The notes: generated from the sequence alone by a model not told the origin. A DNA stretch of 21,411 nt from Promethearchaeota archaeon (GCA_008080735.1 SHMW01000073.1:1-21411); one strand, 5' to 3'. Shown: positions 5,718 through 13,488, numbered from the stretch's first letter. Numbers and translations are program-made.

Positions 5718-6644
5718 ATGAAAGCACTTATTTCTGACAAAATACACGAAGATGGAATTAAAATTTTGCAAAAAGGCGGATTTGAGGTGGATCAAAAATT
5801 TTCTCTTAGTCCTGATGAGCTACGGAAAGAAATTGCTAATTATGATGCAATTATAGTACGATCTGGTACAAAGCTGACAGCAGAAATCTTAGAGAATGCA
5901 CGGAAATTAAAAGCAATTGGAAGAGCAGGGGTTGGATTAGATAATATAGATTTGAAAAAGGCAGAAGAATTGGGCATTAAGGTATTTAATACTCCAGAAG
6001 CACCCTCAGTATCTGTGGCAGAACTTACGATGGGGCTTATATTAAGTCTGGTTCGTCATATAGCGAAAGCAGATAAAACTATGCATTGTGGTGAGTGGCT
6101 TAAAAGCAATTATACGGGGTATGTACTAAAGGGAAAGAAGATGGGGATAATTGGGTTTGGAAATATTGGGTCTGAGGTTGCAAGGAAAGCTTCTGCATTC
6201 GAAATGCAAATAGGCATTTATGATGTTGACCAAGATGCCAAGAAAAAGGCAAAATCTTTAGGATACCATATCTATACCTCTGTAGATGAATTGATTCAAG
6301 ATGTTCAGATAGTATCTTTACACATTCCCTCTACCGTCCATACTGAAAATACAATAGACGCAAGAAGATTACAGTTAATGAGTAAAGACACCATTTTGAT
6401 AAATACTGCGAGAGGAAATTTAGTCGATGAGGGTGCTTTAATTAAAGCATTGCAAAAAAAGAAAATTGGTGGTGCTGCCTTAGATGTGTATAGAGAAGAA
6501 CCCCTTAATAATTTGGATTTATGTCAATGCGAAGAAAATTTGATCTTGACACCCCACATTGGAAGCCAAACAGAAGAAACTCAGATTGAAGCAAGTACAG
6601 GGGCTACCAGAAAAATTATAGATTATTTTAAGAGTCTGAAATAA
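5718..6644 (+). CDS. serA: D-isomer-specific 2-hydroxyacid dehydrogenase / D-3-phosphoglycerate dehydrogenase (short form, no ACT domain)
   Basis: IVRSGTK, RAGVGLDNID, GFGNIG (NAD binding), INTARG, LDVYREEP, TPHIG. Confidence 0.8.
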   Translation: MKALISDKIHEDGIKILQKGGFEVDQKFSLSPDELRKEIANYDAIIVRSGTKLTAEILENARKLKAIGRAGVGLDNIDLKKAEELGIKVFNTPEAPSVSVAELTMGLILSLVRHIAKADKTMHCGEWLKSNYTGYVLKGKKMGIIGFGNIGSEVARKASAFEMQIGIYDVDQDAKKKAKSLGYHIYTSVDELIQDVQIVSLHIPSTVHTENTIDARRLQLMSKDTILINTARGNLVDEGALIKALQKKKIGGAALDVYREEPLNNLDLCQCEENLILTPHIGSQTEETQIEASTGATRKIIDYFKSLK

Positions 6645-6702
6645 AAAAATTATAAAATTATTATTTATTATACAAATACACAGTAGAAAAAAGTGATCTC
6701 AA

Positions 6703-7287
6703 GTGAAGTCAGGATATAAATATGTGAAGGAAACATTTGAAAAACATGACAAAACCTATAAAAGTTCGAATTGGAAACGCGCAATAGAATATCGCAAGGG
6801 AAGATCTGTTCAGAGAATTAACAGACCAACAAAGATTCATCGCGCTAGAGATTTAGGATATAAGGCAAAACAAGGATATGTAGTAGCACGAGCACGTATT
6901 CGCAAAGGCGGCATGCATAAGCAGCGTCCTAAACGAGGAAGAAAAAATCGAGCGATGGGTGTTGTAAAATACACAACGGGTAAGAATTTGAGATGGATCG
7001 CAGAAGAGCGGGCACAAAAAAGATTTCCAAACTTAGAAGTACTAAATAGTTATAAGATATCATCTGATGGTAAACATTGGTATTATGAAGTGATCCTAGT
7101 CGATCCTCATCATCCCGTCATTAAATCGGATCCGAAGATCAATTGGATCTGTGATTCATCAAATAAAAAGAGAGTCTACAGAGGTAAAACTTCCGCAGGT
7201 AGAAAAGCGCGAGGACTACATAAAAAAGGATGGGGATCTGAAAAAACTCGTCCGAGTATAAGGGCCAATAAAGGGCGAGGAAATTAA
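6703..7287 (+). CDS. rpl15e: 50S ribosomal protein L15e
   Basis: 'RARDLGYKAKQGYVVARARIRKGG', 'AEERA…NLEVLNSY', 'YEVILVDPHHP', 'RGKTSAGRKARGL'. Confidence 0.97.
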   Translation: MKSGYKYVKETFEKHDKTYKSSNWKRAIEYRKGRSVQRINRPTKIHRARDLGYKAKQGYVVARARIRKGGMHKQRPKRGRKNRAMGVVKYTTGKNLRWIAEERAQKRFPNLEVLNSYKISSDGKHWYYEVILVDPHHPVIKSDPKINWICDSSNKKRVYRGKTSAGRKARGLHKKGWGSEKTRPSIRANKGRGN

Positions 7288-7450
7288 TAATCCTTTTCTT
7301 AACAGTTTCTATTTTTTAATAGTATTAAATTAGTTTTTATATACTTCCAATATTCTCCTTATTTGCTCTCTTTTATGAATAAGGCAAAAATAAGTTTCAT
7401 GAGATATTATTTAATAATATTAAGGTCACATTATAATTAAGTTGATTAAA

Positions 7451-8911
7451 ATGAAAGAATCTGAATTAGAACCAAAAGCCTTAAGTAAGGAAGAATTATC
7501 GAGGATCTCATCTGGAATAAATGGCGAGGAAATTTTGGAGTTCCAAAAACATTCACTTAACAATTTTGTGGAACCACTAACTCCTATAGAGGCAAAAGAG
7601 CCGGGCTCGCCATGGGTCAGAGTCCAAGATGAAGAGGGGAATATGAAAGATATTTTAGATTGTACCTCGATGAATTGGACCCTTGCATTAGGGTTTGCAC
7701 ATCCCGATGTGAATTATGCAGCCTTAGAACAGATGAAACGTCTAACACATGTGAGGTATAATTGTTTGACACCAGCAAGAGCAAAATTAGCGAATAAATT
7801 AGCAGCTATTGCTCCAGGAAAGTTAAAGGGCGGAAGAGTTGCATTTAATTGCGAAGGAGGGGGACTGGCCAATGAAGCAGCGATGAAACTAGCGATGATT
7901 GCCTCAAGAGGTGCAGATCATTTCGGTGCGTTTTGGCATGGATATCATGGATCAAGCTTGGTAACTGCTACGCTTTCCCAGCCGATTCACGCGGTAACGC
8001 GTTTTGATACTTTTGCGACGGGGCATTTCACACGTATGCCGCAACCATATTGTTATAGATGTATGTGGAATTATAAGAATGGAATTAACGGAGAACGGGA
8101 TCCAGAGTGTAATTTAGAATGCTTTAGTGTGGTGGAAAAGTATCTTAAAGGAATGGCACCAAAGCAAATAGCAGGAGTGATTCTGGAGCCCATACAAGGA
8201 GCAGGAGGACATATTCCATTCCCCCCCGATTTTTTAAAAGAATTAAAGCATACCTGCAAAGAAGAGAAAATTTATTTAATCTATGATGAATGTCAAACAT
8301 GTATGTGGAGGACGGGCAAATATTTTACAGTAACAGAGAAATATCAAGAAGAATTAGGGTTGGATGTGTCTCCAGATATGATGACCTTCACGAAGGCTAT
8401 TGGAGGCGGTTTTCCTTTAGGTGTTTTAATTGCCAGCCAGAAAATGAGAAAGACATTTACTCCAACAGAAGAGCATACTACTTTTAGCTCAGATCCAGTC
8501 GCCTTAACTACAGGATTAGCGGCAATAAAAGTCATAGAAAAGGAGAAGTTGGGAGAGAACTGTGAAAAAATGGGAAATATCATTACTAAGAGATTAAAGG
8601 AAATGCAAGAAAAATATGAAGTAATGGGAGATGTTCGAGGTCCAGGATTATTCATTGGTATTGAAATGGTAAAAGATAGAGAAACCAGAGAACCTTATAC
8701 TGAGCTGGTAGAGGAGATGATGCAAATTGCTCCAAAATATAATCTATATTTAGGGGAGAGTATGCCTATTCTCTCAGCGAAAGGAGAACTCTTAATGAGA
8801 AATCTTGTAAAAATTAAACCGCCTCTCGTTATAACTGAAGAAGATACAGAATTCATATTGGAAAACTTTGAAAAAGTATTAAAAGAAGCGTTAAATAAGG
8901 TCAAAGAATAA
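7451..8911 (+). CDS. Class III PLP-dependent aminotransferase (GabT/taurine/omega-amine type)
   Basis: LGFAHP, ANEAAMKLA, YHG, EPIQGAGG, DECQT, the PLP lysine in FTKAIGGG, DVRGPGL, IKPPL. Alternative TTG start at 7442. Confidence 0.9.
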   Translation: MKESELEPKALSKEELSRISSGINGEEILEFQKHSLNNFVEPLTPIEAKEPGSPWVRVQDEEGNMKDILDCTSMNWTLALGFAHPDVNYAALEQMKRLTHVRYNCLTPARAKLANKLAAIAPGKLKGGRVAFNCEGGGLANEAAMKLAMIASRGADHFGAFWHGYHGSSLVTATLSQPIHAVTRFDTFATGHFTRMPQPYCYRCMWNYKNGINGERDPECNLECFSVVEKYLKGMAPKQIAGVILEPIQGAGGHIPFPPDFLKELKHTCKEEKIYLIYDECQTCMWRTGKYFTVTEKYQEELGLDVSPDMMTFTKAIGGGFPLGVLIASQKMRKTFTPTEEHTTFSSDPVALTTGLAAIKVIEKEKLGENCEKMGNIITKRLKEMQEKYEVMGDVRGPGLFIGIEMVKDRETREPYTELVEEMMQIAPKYNLYLGESMPILSAKGELLMRNLVKIKPPLVITEEDTEFILENFEKVLKEALNKVKE

Positions 8912-8949
8912 ATAATTAAAAATTTTGAAAAAATAATTTTTTTACTTTT

Positions 8950-9756
8950 TTATGTTTTATTGATGGATATGGTCATACCGCCGTCTAGTTTTATATTTTC
9001 TCCCGTTATATAATCTGATTTCGGAGATGCTAAAAATTCTGCCACATCAGCAACCCATTCGGGATCCCCAATCTTATCTATGGGTAATTTAACTCCCCTA
9101 CTCTCTAAAAATTGACGAATCAATTTTGGATCGTTATTATAAATGGGGGTTAAAAATACTCCGGGTGAGATTGCGTTAACAGTTATATCGTCAGGTCCTA
9201 ACTCTAAGGCCCAGAGTTTGGTAAAAGCAATAAGGGCTGCCTTACTTGCGCTATATACCCCAATAAACGGATTTAGACCATTATCAGTTCCAGCACAAGA
9301 TGCAATATTAATTATTTTTCCTCGAACGGGTTTAAAATCCCTCTGTCTTTTCATCTTTCTAAAAAAGATTTTGGTCATATTCCACGCACCTTTCACATTG
9401 ACCGCCATGACCTTATCATAGATCTCCTCTTTAGCCTTTAGAGAAGAATAGAGACCACCGTCTATACCTGCGTTATTTACTAAGAGATACACATTATCGA
9501 ATGTATCAAAAACATCATTTTCCATTTGTTTAACTTGATTTAGATCTGTGATATCAGCATGGATGATTTTTATATCCACCTCGAATTCATTCTCAATTAT
9601 CTTTTTGGATTCTTCTAAACCATCTTGGTCAATATCATTTAAAACTAAATCAGCACCTTTCGAGGCAAATCGCTTTGCCATAATGCGCCCAAATCCAGAA
9701 CTCCCTGCTCCAGTTATGACTGCTACCTTTCCTTTCAAATACTTTTCATTTCCCAT
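8950..9756 (-). CDS. Short-chain dehydrogenase/reductase (SDR)
   Basis: TGAGSSGFG, NNAG, YSASK catalytic motif, VNAISPG, YITGE..LDGG. Confidence 0.92.
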   Translation of the reverse strand: MGNEKYLKGKVAVITGAGSSGFGRIMAKRFASKGADLVLNDIDQDGLEESKKIIENEFEVDIKIIHADITDLNQVKQMENDVFDTFDNVYLLVNNAGIDGGLYSSLKAKEEIYDKVMAVNVKGAWNMTKIFFRKMKRQRDFKPVRGKIINIASCAGTDNGLNPFIGVYSASKAALIAFTKLWALELGPDDITVNAISPGVFLTPIYNNDPKLIRQFLESRGVKLPIDKIGDPEWVADVAEFLASPKSDYITGENIKLDGGMTISINKT

Positions 9757-9855
9757 TTTACATTCCTCCTCTCTTAAAATTAATTCTTTGATCCTTTTTA
9801 TATATCAGATAAATATATGATTTTTATGATGAAAATTAATAAGAATTGAAGAACT

Positions 9856-11601
9856 CTAAGGATTTTTAAATAGTCCTTTTGATTTCTTATACAAACCGAC
9901 TATTTTCATTGCTGGAGGTGTTTCAAATGCAATATCTACATCTATTACTGCTGGTTTTCCAGAATCAACTGCTCTTTGAAGTGCGGGTTTAATATCTTCC
10001 GGCTTTTCTACTTTTTCACCATAACATCCGAATCCTTTACCGATTTCAGCATAGTTCGTTGAAGGGAAGTCTACATCACAATATCGCTTACTTAGATTGT
10101 TTCTTTGGTTTGATTTTATCATACCCCAACAGCTATTATTCGCTACAACTACTATTATCGGTAAATTTAAACGAACTGCGGTATCCAAATCTTGAACATT
10201 AAACATGAAACTTCCATCTCCAGTTAAGCAAACCACTAATTTATCTGGTTTTGCCATTTGAGCACCAATCGCATGAGGTATGCCAGTACCTAAATGACCC
10301 ATTGAAATTGGATAATAGGTACATCTCGGCTCTCGCGTCTTATTACTTAACAAACCGAAGGTAAACACCGCAATATCTCCTCCATCGAGAACAAATTGAG
10401 TGTCGGGTTCGATGAAATCTAAAACCTCCCACGCTAATCTCTGGGGTTTCATAGGAAGTTTATCTGATTTTAAGATCTTGTCTATATTTTGTTGATCTGC
10501 ATCCTTCAATTCTCTTAAATAGGTATTCCATTCATCCCACTGCGTTATTTTTGCCTTAGGTAAATCATCCTCCATTTCTGAAAGAAATTGATTTATTACC
10601 GCCTCAACATCTCCGATAATAGGAACTTTTGTAGGTCTATTTTTTCCTATTACTGTAGGATCAATATCAACTTGAACTACCTTTTGATCTTGGTTCCATA
10701 TTGGAGGTGCTCCATAGAGTAATGTATAATCCCATTTTGCTCCAAATGAAATTACAACATCTGCTTGAGATGCGGCAGTTCTGAATGCATTTGCGGTAAG
10801 ATAAGATCCGATGTATGTATCCTTATCATTTGAGATTGCTCCTATACCGTTAATGGTTGTACCTGCGGGGATTCGATATTGTTGTGATAATCTTTTAAAA
10901 TTTTCGGAAGCTTCCGAGGCAATTGTACCTCCTCCGGCGATTAATAAAGGTTTTTCTGCCTCTATTAAAAGTTTTATAGCAGATTTAATTGCATCAGGAT
11001 TCCCAGAAGGTCTGTGAAGGGGTCTATAGTTTTCTGGAGGGACAATATCTTTATAGTATTCTTCTTTTGCCTCTCGAACCAATGCAGTTTCTCTTAATTC
11101 TAAAAAAACTGGACCCCTTCGGCCTGACATTGCTGCTTTCATTGCTCTCTGAACCGCTTTAGGAATCTCGTAAGGCTCCTCAACAGAGATTTGCTCTTTG
11201 GTAATCGGCTCCATTAATTTCATTTGATCTAAGCCTCCTTGTAGTATTCCTGTATCATCAAACATTCTAGCAATCTGAGCCCCTATTACCAGAAGCGGGA
11301 TAGAATCTGCCCATGCTGCCGCAATTGCAGGAACTAAATGAGTTACTCCGGGACCCGCAGTCCCCAAGCAAACACCGATATCCCCAGTAGCTCTGGCCCA
11401 TGCATCAGCAGCATGTCCACCTGCTTGTTCATGACGCATCATAATAGTGTCAATACCTTCTTCTCTTCCCCATCTTTCGACCGCATCATAGATTCGGAGT
11501 AATTCACCACCAACAATTCCGAAGATTTTACTAATACCCTCATTGATTAAGCATTCTACAACTAAATCTCCGCCTTTATTTTTTTGTTTTTTACTTACCA
11601 T
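9856..11601 (-). CDS. Thiamine-diphosphate-dependent enzyme (acetolactate synthase-like / 2-hydroxyacyl-CoA lyase / Xsc superfamily)
   Basis: RHEQ catalytic Glu, AGPG, GPV, and the ThDP motif GDGSF…NN. Confidence 0.88.
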   Translation of the reverse strand: MVSKKQKNKGGDLVVECLINEGISKIFGIVGGELLRIYDAVERWGREEGIDTIMMRHEQAGGHAADAWARATGDIGVCLGTAGPGVTHLVPAIAAAWADSIPLLVIGAQIARMFDDTGILQGGLDQMKLMEPITKEQISVEEPYEIPKAVQRAMKAAMSGRRGPVFLELRETALVREAKEEYYKDIVPPENYRPLHRPSGNPDAIKSAIKLLIEAEKPLLIAGGGTIASEASENFKRLSQQYRIPAGTTINGIGAISNDKDTYIGSYLTANAFRTAASQADVVISFGAKWDYTLLYGAPPIWNQDQKVVQVDIDPTVIGKNRPTKVPIIGDVEAVINQFLSEMEDDLPKAKITQWDEWNTYLRELKDADQQNIDKILKSDKLPMKPQRLAWEVLDFIEPDTQFVLDGGDIAVFTFGLLSNKTREPRCTYYPISMGHLGTGIPHAIGAQMAKPDKLVVCLTGDGSFMFNVQDLDTAVRLNLPIIVVVANNSCWGMIKSNQRNNLSKRYCDVDFPSTNYAEIGKGFGCYGEKVEKPEDIKPALQRAVDSGKPAVIDVDIAFETPPAMKIVGLYKKSKGLFKNP

Positions 11602-11689
11602 ATTTTAAGATTATAGTGAGTTTGATATAAATATTTTTAATTTAAAAGTGTTTAACAATAAAAAGAATAAGAAAATGAATTTTCTGAGA

Positions 11690-12136
11690 TTAAAATTCAA
11701 GTAATTCTATATAATACCCGATTAAATCTTTAGTATCTAAATATGTGAACCTCAATTTACCTACATTTCCAACTTGAGCGATGTCCACATTAAAGTCTTC
11801 CTTAAATTGTGTAATAAATTTATCGGCGTCTTTGACGTAAATTCCGAGATGATGGAGGCCAGTATTCCCTTCTTCAATAAATTCTGAATAAAGATTTGGT
11901 CCGTTGGCTTTAACAACCTCCACAACCTCAAATTGTTTTCCTCCGAAAAACTGCATTATCTTTTTCATCGTAAATTTAACTTCCTTTCCTTTATAGATCA
12001 CGTTTGCATCTTGTTCGAGAATATTAATAGCTCCTTTAAACGCAAAGAGGGCTCGATATAGCTCTGCGGACTTCTCAATATCATTTACCACTATTCCTAC
12101 TTGGTCAAATTTATCAAGCTTAAATTTTTGTGTCAT
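11690..12136 (-). CDS. VOC/glyoxalase family protein (methylmalonyl-CoA epimerase-like)
   Basis: DQVGIVV.DIE, QFEV, GLHHLG, YLDT…IELLE give Q/E/H/E metal ligands. Confidence 0.85.
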   Translation of the reverse strand: MTQKFKLDKFDQVGIVVNDIEKSAELYRALFAFKGAINILEQDANVIYKGKEVKFTMKKIMQFFGGKQFEVVEVVKANGPNLYSEFIEEGNTGLHHLGIYVKDADKFITQFKEDFNVDIAQVGNVGKLRFTYLDTKDLIGYYIELLEF

Positions 12137-12189
12137 AATTAAACTTAGTATTCAAATAATAAATTTTGTATGTTTTAATTTGGAAAAGA

Positions 12190-13488
12190 TTATTTTACCT
12201 TTGGTGCAAACTCTAATTCTCCGGTCGGCTTTTGGAGCGAAAACTCACCCTTTAATATCATTTTTTTTAGCCTTTCTGCGAGTTTTATGGCCCCATTTCT
12301 GTCGGATTGCCTTAAAACAACTGGTATTTCTTTCCTTTCTTTCATTCCCTCGAGTTTCACATTGATTGACTTTAAATCTATATCAAAAGCCTCTTCTGGA
12401 CATACTATGTAACACGTCCCGCAATTAAAACATCGGTTTCTATCTATCCCCTTCTCTAAATCAAAGGCATCCGTGGGACATTTTCCGTCTACTGGACATT
12501 CATCACAATCAATACATTTGTCAGGATAAAATTTGACAACAAAGTTATTATCCCAAACATCTCCATATGTTATTTCTCCCACGCGGAATCTTCCCACAAC
12601 ATTTAATATGGTTAGTGGAACATCATTATCCGATTTAATAATATTGTTCCAGATTTTTTCATTAAGAACAGGCAGAGGTACAGCAATCGAACATATACTC
12701 TCAGGACCATAAGATGTTTTAAATGAACCCATAAATTCTGGATCCATACCTTTCATATCGCAAATTGTTTGAAGATTTGGTTTTAGTCGATCATTTCGTG
12801 TCCCAGGCCCCATAATATACCCAATTTGACCATTAACCAAGATTTTGGTACCTATGCCCATAACGTCCGCATCGGGATCGTTTTGAAAGGGATTCATAGC
12901 ACCGCATCCAGAGAAAGTTAATTGAGAGAAGTTTCCTTTAAGTGGAAGGGCAGAAAAGATAGTCTCCACCACATTTTCTGTTGGATTTACCATCGCAAAA
13001 TAATTCCGGATTGCTTGTCTAGTACCCATTAATCTGGCAAATTGGAAATCTTTTAAAGTTAATGTTTTTTCTATTTCAATTCCTTCTACACTTTTTGCCC
13101 TTATATTCACTTGTTTTCCTTCAACAAGATCCCTAAAGAGCATCCCTCCAGAATAATTTTTTCTCGTCTCACTTTTTGCAGTACCATATAAGATTAGGTC
13201 AATTATCCCTAAAAATTCATTAGGACAAGGCCCTGGAAATCCAGGTATTCCATTAATGCTCACTTCTATAAATTTGCGAACTTCTTTGGGAGGAAATAAT
13301 CTAAAAGAGAAAATACCTGCTATTCCGCTCATAAGAGCCTTAGTAGCAGTGGTTATAACATCTACATCTTCAAATCCGATATTTTCTCCGTCTTCTAATT
13401 TATCTATTAATTCTTGAACGGTGAGGATATTTGCATTTCCTTCCTTAATTTTCGAATTTATCTCTTCGAGAGTTCTTTTTTTTTCCAA
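12190..13488 (-). CDS. Methanogenesis marker 16 metalloprotein (DUF39 + 2x[4Fe-4S]; ComF / coenzyme M synthase-like)
   Basis: 'RTLEEIN.KI', 'DVDVITTAT..LMSG', 'GPCPNE.LG', 'SGCG..NP.QNDP', ferredoxin motifs CIDCDEC…CP and CFNCGTC…CP, and C-terminal RQSDR. TTG start. Confidence 0.8.
   Translation of the reverse strand: MEKKRTLEEINSKIKEGNANILTVQELIDKLEDGENIGFEDVDVITTATKALMSGIAGIFSFRLFPPKEVRKFIEVSINGIPGFPGPCPNEFLGIIDLILYGTAKSETRKNYSGGMLFRDLVEGKQVNIRAKSVEGIEIEKTLTLKDFQFARLMGTRQAIRNYFAMVNPTENVVETIFSALPLKGNFSQLTFSGCGAMNPFQNDPDADVMGIGTKILVNGQIGYIMGPGTRNDRLKPNLQTICDMKGMDPEFMGSFKTSYGPESICSIAVPLPVLNEKIWNNIIKSDNDVPLTILNVVGRFRVGEITYGDVWDNNFVVKFYPDKCIDCDECPVDGKCPTDAFDLEKGIDRNRCFNCGTCYIVCPEEAFDIDLKSINVKLEGMKERKEIPVVLRQSDRNGAIKLAERLKKMILKGEFSLQKPTGELEFAPKVK

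Follow-up and report, generated by a model that had tools for sequence, protein, structure and literature searches.

Why would an archaeon in which no enzyme of methane or alkane metabolism is detected carry a gene for a coenzyme M (CoM) synthase, and what would the genes that follow it contribute? CoM is regarded as a hallmark of methane and alkane metabolism, and beyond that of a few bacteria that oxidise alkenes. The DNA that raises this question is a 21,411-nucleotide stretch (the window) located on contig C73. The contig is part of a metagenome-assembled genome (MAG) of 4.1 Mb that is 93% complete with 7% contamination and whose close relatives are MAGs of the Promethearchaeota/Promethearchaeia (Lokiarchaeia). 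The window features a run of four minus-strand genes that begins with a marker-16 protein (MMP16, ComF type) and continues with a VOC protein, a thiamine diphosphate (ThDP) enzyme and a short-chain dehydrogenase/reductase (SDR), and the run converges on a class III aminotransferase. Each of these five genes, which a sequence-only reading of the window had described in this arrangement, was confirmed at its coordinates. With moderate confidence, the run is interpreted as a CoM-synthase operon in which the VOC, ThDP and SDR proteins would act on the same aldehyde-level pool as MMP16, the aminotransferase would be an optional neighbour, and the thiol would be put to a use outside methane and alkane metabolism.

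The first gene of the run (12190-13488, minus strand) encodes a protein that is assigned as an orthodox MMP16/ComF-type aldehyde sulfurtransferase. The TIGR03287 model matches it with 482.1 bits, above the curated equivalog cutoff of 363.95, and the HcyBio model matches residues 19-418 with 287.6 bits, with a Fer4 match at residues 348-368. In the protein a 2x[4Fe-4S] ferredoxin is inserted into the COG1900d domain, and there is no CBS pair. Chadwick et al. 2025 (PMC12068725) described two conserved MMP16 cysteines, Cys95 and Cys202 in the M. acetivorans numbering. Cys88 and Cys195 of the window protein align with Cys95 and Cys202 of the Methanosarcina protein, 8/8 ferredoxin cysteines are kept, and Ser193 occupies the position of Cys200, which is not conserved. 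The identity to the Methanosarcina orthologue is 46%, the range for Methanosarcina and anaerobic methanotroph (ANME) proteins is 46-49%, and by identity the window protein is equally distant from these proteins and from the other Asgard copies. No solved MMP16 structure was found for comparison. A likelihood tree rooted on the L-ASST (an L-aspartate semialdehyde sulfurtransferase) of the window's own genome revealed that the window protein is nested within the MMP16 clade and that the MMP16 proteins of the Lokiarchaeial order form one clade with a support of 100. This clade is located beside the copies from family f3 and the Helarchaeota, the methanogen/ANME clade is the next sister, and the stem branch of the Lokiarchaeial clade, 0.36 changes per column, is unremarkable. 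The tree, the cysteines and the TIGR03287 score all place the protein with ComF/MMP16 and away from the aspartate-semialdehyde sulfurtransferases, so the earlier assignment of marker 16 to the ComF type was upheld.

It is very improbable that the protein is instead a second homocysteine-forming aspartate-semialdehyde sulfurtransferase. The two enzymes have the COG1900 fold in common, and L-ASST and MMP16 are partly interchangeable in Methanosarcina (PMC12068725), but the architecture of the window protein is that of MMP16, the protein sits in the MMP16 clade, and the genome already features a separate canonical L-ASST on another contig (C19:2649-6137), with HcyBio and CBS domains and an adjacent ferredoxin partner, so that homocysteine synthesis is already covered. 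The gene pair for this L-ASST and its ferredoxin is arranged back to back with genes for HdrC-like (Fer4_8) and HdrB-like (CCG) proteins. The pairing of Hdr-type genes with COG1900 genes, here with L-ASST and in the Helarchaeales-type CoM loci with MMP16, may be functional. As an MMP16, the window protein would use reduced sulfur and electrons from its own ferredoxin domain to turn an aldehyde into a primary thiol. Family membership suggests that the substrate is most likely sulfoacetaldehyde and that the product is most likely CoM.

The distribution of MMP16 indicates that the gene is a regular feature of the lineage. Of 400 Asgard genomes, 131 have a TIGR03287 score above the cutoff, and MMP16 exceeds it in 107 of the 135 genomes of the window's family and 117 of the 154 genomes of its order, about three quarters. 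The host family is Lokiarchaeial (Promethearchaeota), large and apparently uncultured. MCR alpha was found in 0/154 genomes of the order and was not found in the window's genome, and MtrA was likewise not found in the window's genome. The host had been presumed to be a non-methanogen, and this agrees with the result that MCR/ACR was not detected in the lineage. A family without a detected methane or alkane enzyme therefore probably makes CoM for another purpose, to judge from its genes. A search of the literature on MMP16, COG1900 or ComDE in Asgard archaea or Lokiarchaeia found no description of such an operon, and the published survey of MMP16 covered MCR-bearing archaea only (PMC12068725).

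The arrangement of the run was compared across wide MMP16 regions from 40 diverse genomes and 80 more loci obtained through an independent scan of species genomes. The conservation counts use species-representative loci from relatives in which the sequence continues downstream of MMP16 for at least 3.4 kb (n = 55) or at least 6 kb (n = 44). In the window's family the order is fixed: the Rpp30 gene, then MMP16, VOC (not in every locus), ThDP and SDR in one direction, and then the L15e gene. The ThDP and SDR genes follow MMP16 in 50/55 loci, the VOC gene is present in 35/55, and MMP16 stands alone in 4/55. The clustering is far beyond chance. The association also recurs in other arrangements. 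A Helarchaeota genome (G129) features the order SDR, ThDP, MMP16, the cluster is relocated in G149, and in G144 an intact ThDP homologue with 45% identity is located 2.4 kb downstream of MMP16. The conservation in 50/55 loci together with this recurrence is good evidence that MMP16 and the ThDP/SDR pair are functionally linked. Conserved clustering, which the sequence-only reading required, is supported for the four-gene core, which occupies a fixed slot with ThDP and SDR present in 50/55 loci.

The sulfoacetaldehyde for MMP16 would most likely be supplied by an unlinked ComDE-type sulfopyruvate decarboxylase, which is a divergent fusion in the window's genome and has the canonical, split form in genus g12. 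The window's genome features a fused ComDE-like gene on contig C90 that scores below the curated cutoffs, and ComDE-like genes are present in 92/134 genomes of the family. In a genome of genus g12 (G189) ComD and ComE are split and both exceed their curated cutoffs (199 vs 148 bits for ComD and 244 vs 221.5 bits for ComE). In genus g5 a canonical ComDE co-occurs with an MMP16 that lacks the ThDP gene, and genus g6 is without MMP16, the ThDP orthologue and ComDE. Judged on these genes, a ComDE-type sulfopyruvate decarboxylase is a more orthodox source of sulfoacetaldehyde than taurine transamination. The ComDE-like genes are split into ComD and ComE in g12 and g5 (L168 8921-9993), and they are fused into a gene for about 400 amino acids (L077 9497-10687) in the window's genus and in part of g13. 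The ComDE neighbours in g12 are unrelated and encode a JAB protease, a radical SAM protein and a Zn-ribbon protein. A phosphonate role for the C90 decarboxylase is weakened because no phosphoenolpyruvate mutase was found in the window's genome. The best match of the genome's Ldh_2 protein is the sulfolactate dehydrogenase model, with 264 vs 500 bits, and it was not used as evidence.

The three co-oriented partners of MMP16 belong to broad families. The ThDP enzyme (9856-11601, minus strand) is a three-domain protein of 581 amino acids that resembles acetolactate synthase (ALS) and features the TPP_enzyme_N/M/C domains. It scores below all curated cutoffs, including those of TIGR00118 for ALS (387 vs 538 bits), NF005713 for Xsc (286 vs 620), NF058623 for 2-hydroxyacyl-CoA lyase (HACL; 291 vs 600) and glyoxylate carboligase (Gcl; 300 vs 791). 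A biosynthetic acetolactate synthase and a 2-hydroxyacyl-CoA lyase were rejected as identities on these missed cutoffs, and Xsc was rejected on its score and is weakened further by the lack of an acetate kinase in the genome. The enzyme was also rejected as the ComDE sulfopyruvate decarboxylase, since it has three domains and 581 amino acids and the sole TIGR03845/TIGR03846 match of the genome is on C90. Its PDB neighbours form a flat list at about 220 bits that includes carboligases, acetohydroxyacid synthase (AHAS), benzaldehyde lyase and HACL. When 1.8 billion representatives were searched exhaustively, the clade proved to consist of 3-4 clusters at 44-70% identity, after which identity drops to 40% or less. 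Among the nearest matches the clade is mostly Lokiarchaeial, the nearest outgroups are likewise without an assigned function, and a word-based homologue search returned Lokiarchaeial orthologues only. Two further paralogues of the subfamily are present in the window's genome, on C23 and C69, in uninformative contexts. Tandem arrays of two or three paralogues each are located beside an acyl-CoA dehydrogenase, an enoyl-CoA hydratase and an HMGL-like gene in G228 (L180 7012-12350) and beside three Zn-alcohol dehydrogenases in a Helarchaeota genome (L181 7690-11262). Because paralogues adjoin alcohol dehydrogenases, aldehyde- or alcohol-level chemistry fits the ThDP enzyme, although this does not name its substrate.

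The SDR, encoded by the last gene of the run (8950-9756, minus strand), is a classical SDR oxidoreductase (adh_short_C2, E 4.8e-52) with a best curated family match of 209.7 bits vs a cutoff of 215. Its best 60 PDB neighbours comprise FabG-like proteins, glucose dehydrogenases and butanediol dehydrogenases; neither IsfD nor a hydroxypropyl-CoM dehydrogenase is listed there. The VOC protein (11690-12136, minus strand) is of the Glyoxalase_4, methylmalonyl-CoA-epimerase-like type (PF13669, E 1.3e-10). The genome has no second copy of it, its PDB matches are led by 3gm5 and methylmalonyl-CoA epimerases, and a protein-atlas search returned generic VOC clusters only. The VOC gene is also found after MMP16 and an aminotransferase in family f3. 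The best guess for the partners is that the SDR would oxidise a hydroxy compound and that the ThDP enzyme would make or cleave an aldehyde, so that the co-oriented proteins could form a second feed or a branch at the same aldehyde-level pool.

Several findings weigh against the interpretation of the run as a CoM-synthase operon with working partners. One genome of 99% completeness (G228) features VOC, ThDP and SDR in the usual slot, and MMP16 is cleanly deleted from it, with about 250 bp between Rpp30 and VOC. Genus g5 shows the reverse: its slot contains only MMP16, and a ThDP orthologue is absent. The known CoM-dependent enzymes were not found in the searches made, which covered MCR and MtrA. 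ComDE was not detected in some MMP16-bearing genera, and neither ComA nor cysteate synthase was found in the window's genome and five representative relatives. The comABCDE set, the presence of which bears on the CoM proposal of the sequence-only reading, is thereby represented in the family by its ComDE-like part and not by ComA, for which the six genomes gave no match. Additionally, the ThDP enzyme, the SDR and the aminotransferase reach no curated family cutoff, and their substrates are not assignable from the comparisons made. The deletion site in G228 is located at 8486-8734 of L178 (G228:C1:676000-695500), and this genome retains ComDE-like genes.

Because G228 and genus g5 keep the parts separately, the trio is not an obligatory step of the MMP16 reaction. 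These two cases would also be expected if VOC, ThDP and SDR were an independent carbon-metabolism module for acyloin, alcohol or 2-hydroxyacyl chemistry that shares a stable slot with MMP16 and no pathway, and the many paralogues of the ThDP subfamily, with their tandem arrays beside Zn-alcohol dehydrogenases or acyl-CoA enzymes, are consistent with such a module. This explanation is considered doubtful, however, given the co-orientation and short spacers in 50/55 species, the recurrence of the association elsewhere (G129, G149 and G144, as described above), and the presence of VOC after MMP16 in two different arrangements.

A slightly less doubtful alternative, although still an unlikely one, concerns the product. 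The ThDP enzyme, as a 2-oxoacid decarboxylase or aldehyde-releasing lyase, and the SDR could supply an aldehyde other than a sulfonate, for example an omega-oxo acid, that MMP16 would convert into a different mercapto compound. The partners are unlike those of every described CoM locus, no CoM-using enzyme came out of the MCR and MtrA searches, some MMP16-bearing genera are without ComDE yet have the ThDP gene, and wider COG1900 roles such as CoB synthesis have been raised by Chadwick et al. (PMC12068725). The MMP16 itself is not divergent, however, since its score is above the equivalog cutoff, its branch is not long and the conserved residues are present, and a canonical ComDE co-occurs with it in g12, and in g5 where MMP16 lacks the ThDP gene.

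The aminotransferase that faces the run (7442-8911, plus strand) is a PLP enzyme of the class III fold (PF00202, E 4e-75). In the sequence-only reading it was part of a five-gene module that may make CoM, or an analogous thiol, directly from taurine or a related amine. The module holds for MMP16, VOC (where present), ThDP and SDR and does not extend to the aminotransferase, which is an optional, movable neighbour that is loosely linked to the run. It is adjacent in 8/44 loci with at least 6 kb downstream of MMP16. Orthologues with 60-73% identity are located on other contigs in the eight genomes examined, the gene is present without MMP16 in G228, G216 and three single-contig genomes of family f3, and it was not found in five MMP16-bearing genomes. 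The best PDB neighbours of the protein are 7vno from Pyrococcus horikoshii and amino-acid racemases. Neither its 25 best curated families nor its PDB matches at E<=1e-30 include a taurine transaminase, and it has no close paralogue in the genome (29% at best).

A route in which this aminotransferase would convert taurine or a related amine to sulfoacetaldehyde, MMP16 would make CoM from it directly, and an IsfD-like SDR and an Xsc-like ThDP enzyme would act on the same aldehyde is thus improbable, though well short of dismissal. The class III fold suits it, and no enzyme that forms sulfonates de novo was found, which leaves room for imported sulfonates. A second, independent adjacency is found in family f3, where L046 (G132) and L066 (G131) feature glmS, MMP16, the aminotransferase and VOC in one orientation, followed by a convergent GPH-type symporter gene and a gene for NADP-glutamate dehydrogenase. 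Since the window aminotransferase has no close paralogue, the f3 copy at 45% identity is at the orthologue level, and this run beside a symporter and a glutamate dehydrogenase leaves some support for an amine feed. Set against these points are the loose linkage, the orthologues elsewhere, including in genomes that lack MMP16, and the five MMP16-bearing genomes without the gene, together with the absence of a taurine transaminase from the best matches listed, the score of the Xsc model (286 vs 620 bits), the lack of IsfD in the SDR's list of 60 best PDB neighbours, and the lack of an acetate kinase and a weak Pta-like match for the use of acetyl phosphate. The likening of the SDR, the ThDP enzyme and the aminotransferase to IsfD, Xsc and a taurine transaminase found no support in the comparisons made: all three fall under the curated cutoffs, no named taurine transaminase, IsfD or hydroxypropyl-CoM dehydrogenase is among the matches listed, and the Xsc model is far under its cutoff. 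Of the broader proposal of a route to CoM or an analogous thiol, CoM or a close analogue stands as the likely product, and taurine is not its likely source. In the preferred interpretation as a CoM-synthase operon, the aminotransferase would be an optional extra that is outside the core steps.

The thiol made by this operon would serve something besides methane and alkane metabolism, and candidate users are the Hdr-like and MtaA-like proteins, of which these genomes have many. The substrate of the Asgard HdrABC/Mvh complexes has been termed an "unidentified heterodisulfide" (PMC11291895), and the available part of another account assumes CoM in the Sifarchaeia and Jordarchaeia and does not there address its synthesis (PMC9723677). 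The window's genome features twelve MtaA/CmuA-like paralogues of the URO-D family (for example C4:63308-64195), the best of which scores 182 vs a cutoff of 235. One of these paralogues and the Ldh_2 gene on C3 are about 3 kb apart, and another MtaA/CmuA-like gene is near the relocated MMP16 cluster of G149. The Hdr-like genes and the 12 below-cutoff paralogues are possible users of the thiol and are a lead only.

An orthodox CoM synthase is therefore present in about three quarters of a Lokiarchaeial order without detected MCR, in a conserved operon with new partners. The lineage-wide CoM gene set provides a concrete, testable candidate for one half of the Asgard Hdr/Mvh heterodisulfide, and three uncharacterised enzymes (VOC, ThDP and SDR) are flagged as possible members of organosulfur metabolism. 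A bolder extension, which is unlikely and is offered tentatively, is that VOC, ThDP and SDR would form an undescribed route to sulfoacetaldehyde or sulfopyruvate, perhaps including a C-S bond-forming step that replaces ComA or cysteate synthase, and that more than 100 Lokiarchaeial species would make CoM de novo as the thiol of Hdr/Mvh and MtaA-like proteins.

The local features of the run are compact. The spacers among the four minus-strand genes are 53, 88 and 99 bp. The stop codons of the SDR and aminotransferase genes are 38 bp apart, and the A/T-rich spacer between them, which includes a T7 run, could be a bidirectional archaeal terminator. The run is flanked by the genes for ribosomal protein L15e and for the RNase P subunits p30 and Pop5. 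The G+C content is 0.35-0.38 over L15e and the five genes (window 6001-13000) and 0.27-0.31 on either side. Because the cluster keeps the same slot across the family, this rise probably reflects the composition of conserved enzymes, and a recent horizontal transfer was rejected as its source.

Known systems resemble the run in part. The type-2 CoM locus of M. acetivorans consists of the cysteate synthase MA3297, the fused ComDE MA3298 and the MMP16/ComF MA3299 (Chadwick et al. 2025, PMC12068725). The window's system has the same final enzyme, as judged by architecture, cysteines and the 46% identity to the Methanosarcina orthologue, and a ComDE-type decarboxylase is present in the genome and the family. 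In contrast to the type-2 locus, the window's genome has no detected cysteate synthase or MCR, its ComDE is unlinked, and its MMP16 is co-oriented with a VOC protein, an ALS-like ThDP enzyme and an SDR. Type-2 CoM loci are found among the Asgard genomes as well. L050, L053 and L054 (families f5 and f7, with L050 from Helarchaeota) feature the Helarchaeales-type order cysteate synthase, ComDE, HdrC, HdrB, HdrA, MMP16, and one genome of family f33 features cysteate synthase, ComDE and MMP16. The Helarchaeota copy from G128, which is beside the window's clade in the tree, is located in a cysteate synthase-ComDE-HdrCBA-MMP16 locus.

The L-ASST system (MA1821-MA1822) shares with the window protein the COG1900 catalytic domain, aldehyde-to-thiol chemistry and a ferredoxin partner; it features a CBS pair and a separate ferredoxin, whereas the window protein is without CBS and its ferredoxin is inserted. 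The bacterial taurine and isethionate clusters (Tpa or Toa, Xsc, IsfD) likewise place a class III aminotransferase, an ALS-like ThDP enzyme and an SDR side by side. They differ in that the window has no Xsc above the cutoff, its genome has no acetate kinase, and no named taurine transaminase or IsfD is among the listed best matches of the window proteins. These bacterial clusters contain no thiol-forming enzyme, whereas the window run does. The Helarchaeales-type CoM locus is from a host of the same class and its MMP16 belongs to the sister clade, but it has orthodox upstream genes and a private Hdr, all of which are replaced in the window's family. As read from the gene content, the family has lost the classic neighbours of the CoM locus but has kept a predicted capacity to make sulfoacetaldehyde.

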